This document shows positions 1,234-2,048 of a stretch of 64,000 bases of DNA, one piece after another. The notes beneath the pieces are model-generated. The model did no database searches, had not been told where the DNA came from, and was given only the letters and a program-made list of their open reading frames with translations. A program made the position numbers and the translations under genes. Source of the DNA: Escherichia coli (GTDB taxonomy: Bacteria > Pseudomonadota > Gammaproteobacteria > Enterobacterales > Enterobacteriaceae); the NCBI RefSeq assembly GCF_024700885.2, contig NZ_CP117016.1, one strand, 5' to 3'. Position 1 is the first letter of the stretch. The number at the start of each line of letters is the position of its first letter.

Positions 1234-2048
1234 GTATGGAGCTGATGGTTAAAGCGATGAAAATTCGAGTGGGTAATCCATTGCGAAAACTGGTTCTGAT
1301 CAAGCTGGCTGATAATGCCAGCGATCAGGGTGAGTGCTGGCCCAGCTACCAGCATATTGCTGACCAGTGTGAGATTAGCAAACGTTCTGTGATGAATCAT
1401 ATTGCGGCCCTTTGTGAGTCCGGGCTGGTAAAAAAAGTCACCCGGAAAGGTGAAAAAGGTAACTCAAGTAATATCTATCTCCTTCATCTGGATGGTGCAG
1501 GAGATTCACTAGGGGGTAGTGCAAATAATTCACTATCTGGTGCAGCAAATTCACTAGGTAGTGCAGGAGTTGCACCAGGGGGTAGTGCAGGAGATTCACC
1601 CAGAACCAGTCACTCTTTTGAACCAGTCAAAGAACCAGTCAATGAACCAATAGCTGTTGGTGCATCAGTTGATGAGTCCGTGCGAGTTCGTTCAAACCGA
1701 CCGGAATACTCTCCGGAGTTTGAGCAGGCATGGCTGGCATATCCCAAACGTGCTGGTGGCAATTCAAAATCTGCAGCCTTCAAAGCCTGGAAAGCCCGTT
1801 TGAATGAGGGGGTAAACCCCGAAACCATGCTGGAAGGTGTGAAACGCTACGCGGGCTGGGTATCTGCGATGGGTAACAGCGGCACACAATTTGTGAAACA
1901 GGCTGTCACGTTCTTTGGTCCGGATCGTCATTTCGAAGAATCCTGGGAAGTTCCTGCGGTATCTGCAGCTAGACGTGAGGACCCGTACTTCAAAGCCAGT
2001 TACGACAACGTGGACTACAGCCAGATCCCGGCAGGATTCAGGGGGTGA
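1230..2048 (+). CDS. Phage replication initiation protein (lambda O-like role), N-terminal HTH
   Basis: N-terminal helix-turn-helix (KLADNASDQGECWPSYQHIADQCEISKRSV); direct-repeat iteron array embedded in the interdomain coding region as in lambda O/ori. Confidence 0.6.
   Translation: MSMELMVKAMKIRVGNPLRKLVLIKLADNASDQGECWPSYQHIADQCEISKRSVMNHIAALCESGLVKKVTRKGEKGNSSNIYLLHLDGAGDSLGGSANNSLSGAANSLGSAGVAPGGSAGDSPRTSHSFEPVKEPVNEPIAVGASVDESVRVRSNRPEYSPEFEQAWLAYPKRAGGNSKSAAFKAWKARLNEGVNPETMLEGVKRYAGWVSAMGNSGTQFVKQAVTFFGPDRHFEESWEVPAVSAARREDPYFKASYDNVDYSQIPAGFRG
1495..1650. repeat. Candidate replication origin iterons inside replication gene
   Basis: Three ~21-bp direct repeats (1503-1523, 1527-1547, 1548-1568, consensus aATTCACTAggtgGTGCAg) plus a shuffled copy 1582-1600 and three GAACCAGTCA repeats 1603-1644. 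Confidence 0.5.

Follow-up and report, generated by a model that had tools for sequence, protein, structure and literature searches.

We analyzed a 64,000-nucleotide stretch of the Escherichia coli contig NZ_CP117016.1 (the window, hereafter), which carries a lambdoid prophage whose replication initiator gene contains an array of short repeats. Judging from sequence, positions 1452-1653, in the linker-coding part of this gene, are very probably the replication origin of the prophage, and the repeats very probably iterons, that is, the cognate sites of the initiator in whose gene they lie. Five kinds of evidence carry this reading: the anatomy of the repeats, a constraint on their DNA, their position in a predicted disordered linker, the conservation of the architecture among relatives, and the co-variation of the iterons with the recognition helix of the initiator. 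Origins of this kind are known; what is new here is a different initiator family, apparently acting alone, an origin that goes unmentioned in PMC8044961 and PMC8951638, and an invariant array of decamers next to the iterons.

Repeat anatomy and constraint on the DNA

The features on which the argument depends are the following:

1230-2048, + strand: replication initiator gene, 272 amino acids (aa), an 'O-like' HTH_36 protein (open reading frame (ORF), Pfam, PHROG)
1230-1493, + strand: region coding for the N-terminal winged-helix DNA-binding domain, aa 1-88 (AlphaFold2)
1452-1481: least stable 30-bp stretch, candidate unwinding element, directly 5′ of U1
1493-1511: iteron U1, TGGTGCAGGAGATTCACTA
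1517-1535: iteron U2, TAGTGCAAATAATTCACTA
1538-1556: iteron U3, TGGTGCAGCAAATTCACTA
1559-1577: iteron U4, TAGTGCAGGAGTTGCACCA
1583-1601: iteron U5, TAGTGCAGGAGATTCACCC, abutting the decamer block
1602-1653: conserved decamer array, (A/T)GAACCAGTCA at 1602-1612, 1619-1629, and 1631-1641 plus the degenerate GAACCAATAG at 1644-1653
1650-2048, + strand: region coding for the C-terminal domain, helices within aa 162-229

Tandem Repeats Finder (TRF) reported two arrays, one of period 24/21 with 4.7 copies (1495-1599) and one of period 12 (1620-1649), and a separate repeat search returned the same repeat families plus an inverted repeat (1537-1556/1559-1578). The repeats therefore lie where the initial annotation had placed them. 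That annotation had described three repeats and one rearranged copy (1503-1523, 1527-1547, 1548-1568, and 1582-1600), a register that is shifted by 10 bp and straddles neighboring units. In the dyad register there are instead five equivalent in-frame 19-bp units within 1493-1601, each of them dyad-symmetric, and the 'rearranged copy' is U5. The units follow the consensus T(A/G)GTG(C/A)A-N5-T(T/G)CAC(T/C)(A/C) (TRGTGMA-N5-TKCACYM), start 24, 21, 21, and 24 bp apart, and have a common codon phase. With one mismatch allowed, the pattern TRGTGMANNNNNTKCACYM matched all five units on both strands within 109 bp, hence their dyad symmetry. Outside U1-U5 it occurred at one further place in the 64 kb, where 0.38 were expected by chance; none of 100 shuffles reached 11 matches, and the pattern scan found no second cluster of the motif elsewhere in the window. 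The three decamers that had been noted at 1603-1644 are present as exact copies of GAACCAGTCA (1603-1612, 1620-1629, and 1632-1641), and the repeats do encode a Gly/Ser/Ala-rich peptide, GGSANNSLSGAANSLGSAGVAPGGSAG.

The gene product matched the Pfam family HTH_36 (PF13730) at aa 17-67 (1.8e-11, above the cut-off) and PHROG 270, 'replication initiation protein' (3e-88). With its position in the early right operon, this identifies an HTH_36 initiator in the replication slot of a temperate phage. No Rep_3 match was found, and the RepL/RP-C matches seen in one relative were weak and below the cut-off. AlphaFold2 modeled aa 1-88 as a confident winged helix (predicted local distance difference test, pLDDT, 82-91; helices 3-11, 17-28, 40-47, and 51-63, strands 67-73 and 79-85), in which aa 51-63 (KRSVMNHIAALCE) are the predicted recognition helix and aa 67-85 the wing. 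Residues 91-156 form a low-confidence linker segment. With aa 88-124 encoded by the iterons and aa 125-140 by the decamers, both elements fall within this predicted disordered linker, where constraint on the protein is minimal, in keeping with the proposed placement of the repeats between a helix-turn-helix N-domain and a C-domain.

The C-domain, as far as sequence and model indicate, is small, helical, and exchangeable between lineages. It carries the PHROG label 'DnaD-like helicase loader', and gave no Pfam, PDB, or significant fold match. Foldseek, run on the full model, returned weak generic winged-helix matches (for example DnaD-N, 2v79, and the N-terminal domain of plasmid RepA, 4pql), with no match at E <= 1e-3, and PDB sequence searches with the whole protein and with a C-domain profile found no match.

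The similarity of the units could simply follow from the peptide they encode. We therefore resampled synonymous codons 20,000 times at the frequencies of neighboring genes, leaving the protein sequence unchanged. The mean pairwise identity of the units, 14.5 of 19 positions, compares with 8.7 ± 0.6 after resampling, and the dyad score, 5.2 of 7, with 2.2 ± 0.5; neither observed value was reached in any of the 20,000 draws, and the three exact decamers arose in none (0/20,000). Every 'SL' of the repeat segment has CTA, a rare codon, for its Leu. Among 81 near-identical genes, taken from a search that returned genes of 97-100% identity, most polymorphisms of the linker switch between the two bases allowed at an R/Y position of the consensus (CTA<->CCA, TAG<->TGG), and these switches alter the amino acid, from Leu to Pro and from Ser to Gly. 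These comparisons show that the similarity and symmetry of the units exceed what the peptide needs and place the constraint at the level of DNA.

Iterons and recognition helices among relatives

We next compared the gene with its relatives, using a diversity set assembled from DNA-pattern scans and tblastn. Homologs selected by protein similarity (ST64B, Aeromonas AsXd-1, Vibrio D67 and D57, Klebsiella klb_E, Salmonella SI8, Pectobacterium ZF40, Stx2a_F403, Stx2_EH2085, and mEp013) have a common plan: a conserved N-domain, lineage-specific repeats, a conserved block corresponding to the decamer array, and C-domains of several unrelated classes. Beside these C-domains lies a primase-helicase gene, a helicase (DnaB) gene, or, as in the window, nothing. 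Phage phiP27 has a different N-domain with a window-type C-domain and carries DnaC and DnaB. A DNA scan with the block pattern added 120 loci with 95 distinct N-modules, nearly all of them with 3-6 dyad-symmetric 19-bp units placed 21-24 bp apart, the last unit abutting the block. Several of these arrays are spaced 23+22 bp, so that one copy of the motif falls in a different frame. Lineages have this constant DNA geometry in common, while their linker peptides are unrelated; the number of iterons differs by whole units (1, 2, 5, 7, 8, or 9) in otherwise identical proteins; variation by whole units has reportedly been described for lambdoid O genes too. A comparison of repeat spacing with homologs, proposed in the initial annotation as a check, thus finds 1-9 units kept at 21-24 bp, sometimes in another frame.

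The sequence of the iterons varies with that of the predicted recognition helix:

Iteron class TRGTG: helix x[KR]R[ST][VA][MI]
Iteron class TGGGGC: helix [GS]R[ST]TVK
Iteron class TRTGCC: helix S[KRH][ST][AS]V[RK]
Iteron class GTAGGC: helix DRSTVR
Iteron class CGGTCA: helix GRSTVK..AHIKAL

Within the TRGTG class, N, S, or T after the M/I position goes with half-sites GTG(C/A/T)A, and R with GTG(A/T)C. Two loci (L205 and L187) make the point at the level of one residue: their N-domains are 80% identical to that of the window and have the same helix except for N56R, and 15 of their 16 half-sites read GTGAC, whereas N56 of the window goes with GTG(C/A)A. Iteron class is independent of the C-domain, one cluster of which (C1) pairs with three iteron classes, and in two natural recombinants (P0058 and P0072) foreign N-domains are fused, together with their own iterons, to a window-type C-domain. 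Across the loci compared, the iteron sequence is shown to track the recognition helix of the N-domain and not the swappable C-domain. Together with the resampling and the conserved spacing, including the out-of-frame copies, this co-variation supports the earlier proposal that the repeats are the cognate sites of the initiator.

The same results bear on the notion that the repeats are a by-product of a low-complexity Gly/Ser/Ala linker expanded by replication slippage, in DNA with no cis function. The encoded segment is indeed predicted to be disordered, copy number changes by in-frame units, and all five units of the window are in one frame. Such an origin of the repeats is nonetheless hard to credit, as synonymous resampling never matches the similarity or dyad symmetry of the DNA, relatives have the same DNA motif in other frames (the 23+22 bp arrays), and the sequence of the unit follows the recognition helix.

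The decamer block and candidate unwinding elements

To the right of the iterons, the three exact copies of GAACCAGTCA have no counterpart elsewhere in the 64-kb window, and the core AGAACCAGTCAC-TCTTTT-GAACCAGTCAA is nucleotide-identical in phages as distant as those of E. coli and Vibrio. Loci that had been found through the block were left out when its conservation was assessed, and sets selected by protein were used instead. In eight phages chosen by protein similarity, we compared codons at columns where the amino acid is conserved. The same codon was used in 41% of pairs in the N-domain, meaning that synonymous sites there are saturated, against a mean of 0.90 in the block (0.41 in the N-domain; Mann-Whitney p = 6.6e-6), and 8 of 10 block columns had a single codon in all phages (AGA, ACC, CAC, TCT, GAA, CCA, GTC, and GAA).

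A second scan, which allowed other spacings of the decamer pair, found 39 further loci linked to the N-domain, with start-to-start distances of 12, 13, 14, 15, and 16 bp. Family-wide, the decamers are 12-17 bp apart and number 2-5, and the same 10-mer is translated as RTSH, EPV, or NQS, that is, in all three frames. A search with the N-domain only (aa 1-88) yielded 7511 cluster representatives at E <= 1e-3. Among the top 128 representatives of at least 180 aa, 110 had at least two decamer-encodable tripeptides within 8 residues, compared with 0 after shuffling, and most of the other 18 have degenerate versions of the decamer. The array thus appears to be a nucleotide-level element of the N-domain clade, whatever the class of iteron or C-domain. 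A rigid double-stranded dimer site is disfavored by the variable spacing.

Some variants of the arrangement were also seen. Loci L005, L009, L011, and their relatives (of the Stx2a_F403 type, with TGGGGC iterons) carry an extra decamer, TTAACCAGTCAAAC, on the upstream side of the iterons. It falls within the codons of the wing motif LNQSN, some 100-230 bp 5′ of the block, so that decamers flank the array on both sides. In P0040 (247 aa), P0131, P0209, P0235, and P0252, the block has been lost by in-frame deletion or is frame-shifted within (…PEPVTLLNQS…); these homologs are probably decaying prophage copies.

Several candidate identities for the block were examined and set aside. An Rfam scan of 1000-2300 at E <= 1 gave no match to an RNA element, a sigma-70 scan of 1-3000 found no promoter site, and comparison by hand with consensus sequences gave no convincing match of the decamer to a DnaA box or to an IHF, Fis, PhoB, or Chi site. 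Full-text literature searches for the decamer in both orientations and for the peptide it encodes returned unrelated primers only.

Our leading idea for its function is a sequence-specific unwinding or loading element. In its full form, which we put forward tentatively and hold to be somewhat less probable than not, the array would be an origin-opening or loading element, not recognized before, that replaces the generic AT-rich tract of lambda-type origins. It would be recognized either by the HTH_36 initiator, through a conserved surface and perhaps as single-stranded DNA, or by a host factor present throughout the Gammaproteobacteria, and would be common to hundreds of lineages of temperate phages, whatever their iterons and the helicase system they recruit. 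Alternatively, the block might be kept as a short homology joint for the exchange of N- and C-modules, with no part in the origin. Every N-/C-module junction that we observed lies at or just after the block, including those of P0058 and P0072, and conserved boundary sequences at the module junctions of lambdoid phages are known. We consider this explanation unlikely: selection for future recombination is weak, yet the codons of the block are 100% identical among phages of E. coli, Vibrio, Aeromonas, and Pectobacterium whose N-domains are synonymously saturated, and the 10-mer is fixed in all three frames while its copy number and spacing vary, which fits a site recognized by a protein or as single-stranded DNA.

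For the unwinding element itself, composition and stability profiles of the region did not pick out a single candidate. The least stable 30 bp (1452-1481), directly 5′ of U1, have a nearest-neighbor stability z of 3.4 relative to 1000-2600 and rank near the 99th percentile of the whole window, and the GC content of 1452-1490 is 33%; the decamer block is moderately unstable (z = 1.75, 42% GC). The arrays of relatives are likewise flanked by DNA of low stability on both sides. An inverted repeat, TCACCCGGAAAGGTGA, followed by a run of A (1438-1453) reaches the left border of the least stable 30-mer shortly before U1. It resembles an intrinsic terminator of the minus strand and may be either an antisense terminator or a component of the origin.

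Origin model, comparison with known systems, and prophage setting

In the model that we favor for 1452-1653, dimers of the winged-helix N-domain would bind the five dyad-symmetric 19-bp iterons, whose spacing of about two helical turns would place the dimers on one face of the DNA, in a nucleoprotein complex resembling the O-some. This complex would then destabilize a flank, either the AT-rich 1452-1481 on the left or the GAACCAGTCA array on the right, and the C-domain would presumably recruit host replication proteins. We infer this last step from the gene content of the prophage (1 to ~35500 of the window, with its upstream part taken from L213, 3269-12000): no helicase, primase, or helicase loader is annotated between the integrase and lysis genes, nor does the RefSeq annotation list one across the identical prophage of strain M45. 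An initiator that is 'solo' in this sense would have to rely on host proteins.

Some observations weigh against an origin at this place. In the searchable literature, no experiments on binding or replication were found for members of this family, and reading the window by eye, with no scan, revealed no DnaA boxes or recognizable sites for host factors. There is no strong AT-rich tract 3′ of the iterons, where the block has 42% GC and lambda 31% GC. The dimeric state of the N-domain is suggested by the dyad symmetry of the sites and by nothing else. Finally, the association of N-domain and iterons, which lie within 100 bp of each other, could in part be physical linkage; the C-domain is equally close to the iterons, yet it reassorts freely.

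It is also conceivable that the dyad repeats are operator-like sites, acting as a roadblock or in autoregulation of the gene itself or of downstream expression, and that the origin lies elsewhere. Binding of winged-helix dimers to dyad sites is typical of repressors (compare the fold matches above), Rep dimers of iteron plasmids autoregulate through inverted repeats, and the lack of a strong AT-rich tract would agree. We regard this as improbable, because the sites are in the middle of the gene and not at a promoter, no promoter-like site being found in 1-3000, because the family is annotated and positioned as a replication initiator, because the layout is that of the experimentally defined lambda ori, and because the iteron motif forms no other cluster in the window.

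The annotated ori of lambda has four 18-bp iterons, spaced 20/24/23 bp and in three frames, inside O (aa 117-145 of 299), so the lambda-like layout suggested in the initial annotation agrees with the geometry of the prototype; in-gene iterons have also been reported for P22 and L gene 18 (PMC8022706). The origin proposed at 1452-1653 resembles those of lambda, P22, and L in having dyad sites, some 18-19 bp long and placed at intervals of about two helical turns, between a DNA-binding N-domain and a partner-binding C-domain, in the association of iteron specificity with the former and partner specificity with the latter, and in its variable copy number. It differs from lambda in that the prophage has no P-type loader or annotated helicase gene, in the nucleotide-invariant decamer array to the right of the iterons with the AT-rich stretch on the left, and in the lack of detectable homology to the O family. 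The protein and six relatives gave no match to Phage_rep_O (PF04492) at E <= 1, and the N-module alignment, compared with lambda O by hhalign, gave a probability of 3.8%. The term 'O-like' therefore holds for architecture and fold class and fails for sequence homology. An HHpred link between the N-terminus of lambda O and HTH_36 has been reported (Brezellec et al., 2017, PMC5509034), which we did not reproduce.

The array of initiator sites beside short direct repeats also recalls iteron plasmids (RepA/RepE/pi/TrfA). Plasmid Rep proteins bind the repeats (13-mers) of the DNA unwinding element as single strands, and the decamers, with their variable 12-17 bp spacing, resemble these. Such plasmids, however, have their iterons outside the rep gene, as direct repeats to which monomers bind, whereas the sites in the window are dyad-symmetric and inside the gene, the protein has no Rep_3-type domain, and the block is not AT-rich. 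The combination of an HTH_36 N-domain with exchangeable C-domains is shared with DopC and other O-like HTH_36 proteins that have DnaT-like C-termini (PMC5509034); klb_E gave a weak match to a DnaT domain (1.1e-4, 22.3 bits, below the Pfam cut-off of 25 bits). No iteron-like sequences were found by those authors in the domesticated dopC (PMC5509034), in contrast to the prominent iterons of the window gene.

The gene itself has been met before. It is 98-100% identical to genes of Ayreon, mEp460, SfV (orf39), cdtI, and Stx2c/Stx2a phages, and the replication proteins of Eru5/Eru6 phages, SfV orf39, ST64B sb42, mEp460, and cdtI are the same gene (98-99% identical in Stx2a_WGPS2, SfV, mEp460, and cdtI), with Stx2a_F403 having the common type of N-module and the block. 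Among the non-lambdoid replication regions of Shiga-toxin phages, 'Eru6' has Stx2a_WGPS2 as its type, and Stx2a_F403 is 'Eru5' (Fagerlund et al., 2022, PMC8951638). The descriptions of Eru5/Eru6 list an HTH_36 protein, and the word 'repeat' is absent from PMC8951638; neither 'origin of replication' nor 'repeats' occurs in PMC8044961. No description of this origin came up when the literature was searched for iterons and origins of SfV, mEp460, Ayreon, Eru phages, yfdO, and HTH_36.

If correct, these findings supply a concrete origin, and a specificity 'code' from recognition-helix residues to half-site bases, for a very common module of enterobacterial and Vibrio temperate phages, which includes the Eru5/Eru6 Shiga-toxin (Stx) phages, SfV, ST64B, cdtI, and mEp460. 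The replication-specificity groups would matter for interference between phages, for the titration of initiator by cloned origins, and for the induction of Stx phages, and the decamer element makes it approachable how an 'initiator-solo' phage opens its DNA and loads the host helicase.

The prophage lies between yjjG and prfC, and the E. coli strains M45 and MLI114 match the window with 100% identity. Within the early right operon, the initiator is preceded by cI-like, cro-like, ymfL, and ash genes and a small ORF and followed by PerC-like, LexA-DNA-binding-only, RusA, and Q genes. The small ORF (997-1233, + strand; 78 aa, PHROG 1153) ends with a stop codon that overlaps the start codon of the initiator (ATGA), which suggests translational coupling; a small ORF is found in the same position in cdtI, ZF40, and SI8. 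The PerC-like gene (2045-2539) overlaps the stop codon of the initiator, and downstream of it a 108-aa protein (2539-2865, + strand) has a LexA-type DNA-binding domain only (2.9e-19), without the peptidase domain.

Whole phage genomes with the same module have been deposited as circular 'plasmids' of 33-45 kb, for example L335 (NZ_CP148393.1, 44.6 kb). Such records fit episomal, replicating phage DNA and are suggestive, while giving no proof of origin activity. Outside the window, a CHAT-domain gene adjoins the integrase. The right end of the prophage, next to a DinI-like gene and prfC, carries a DRT-type anti-phage defence pair made up of a class UG17 reverse transcriptase (33167-34543, - strand; PADLOC RT_UG17, 2e-158) and a reverse transcriptase-associated SLATT protein (34515-35066, - strand; 8e-57).

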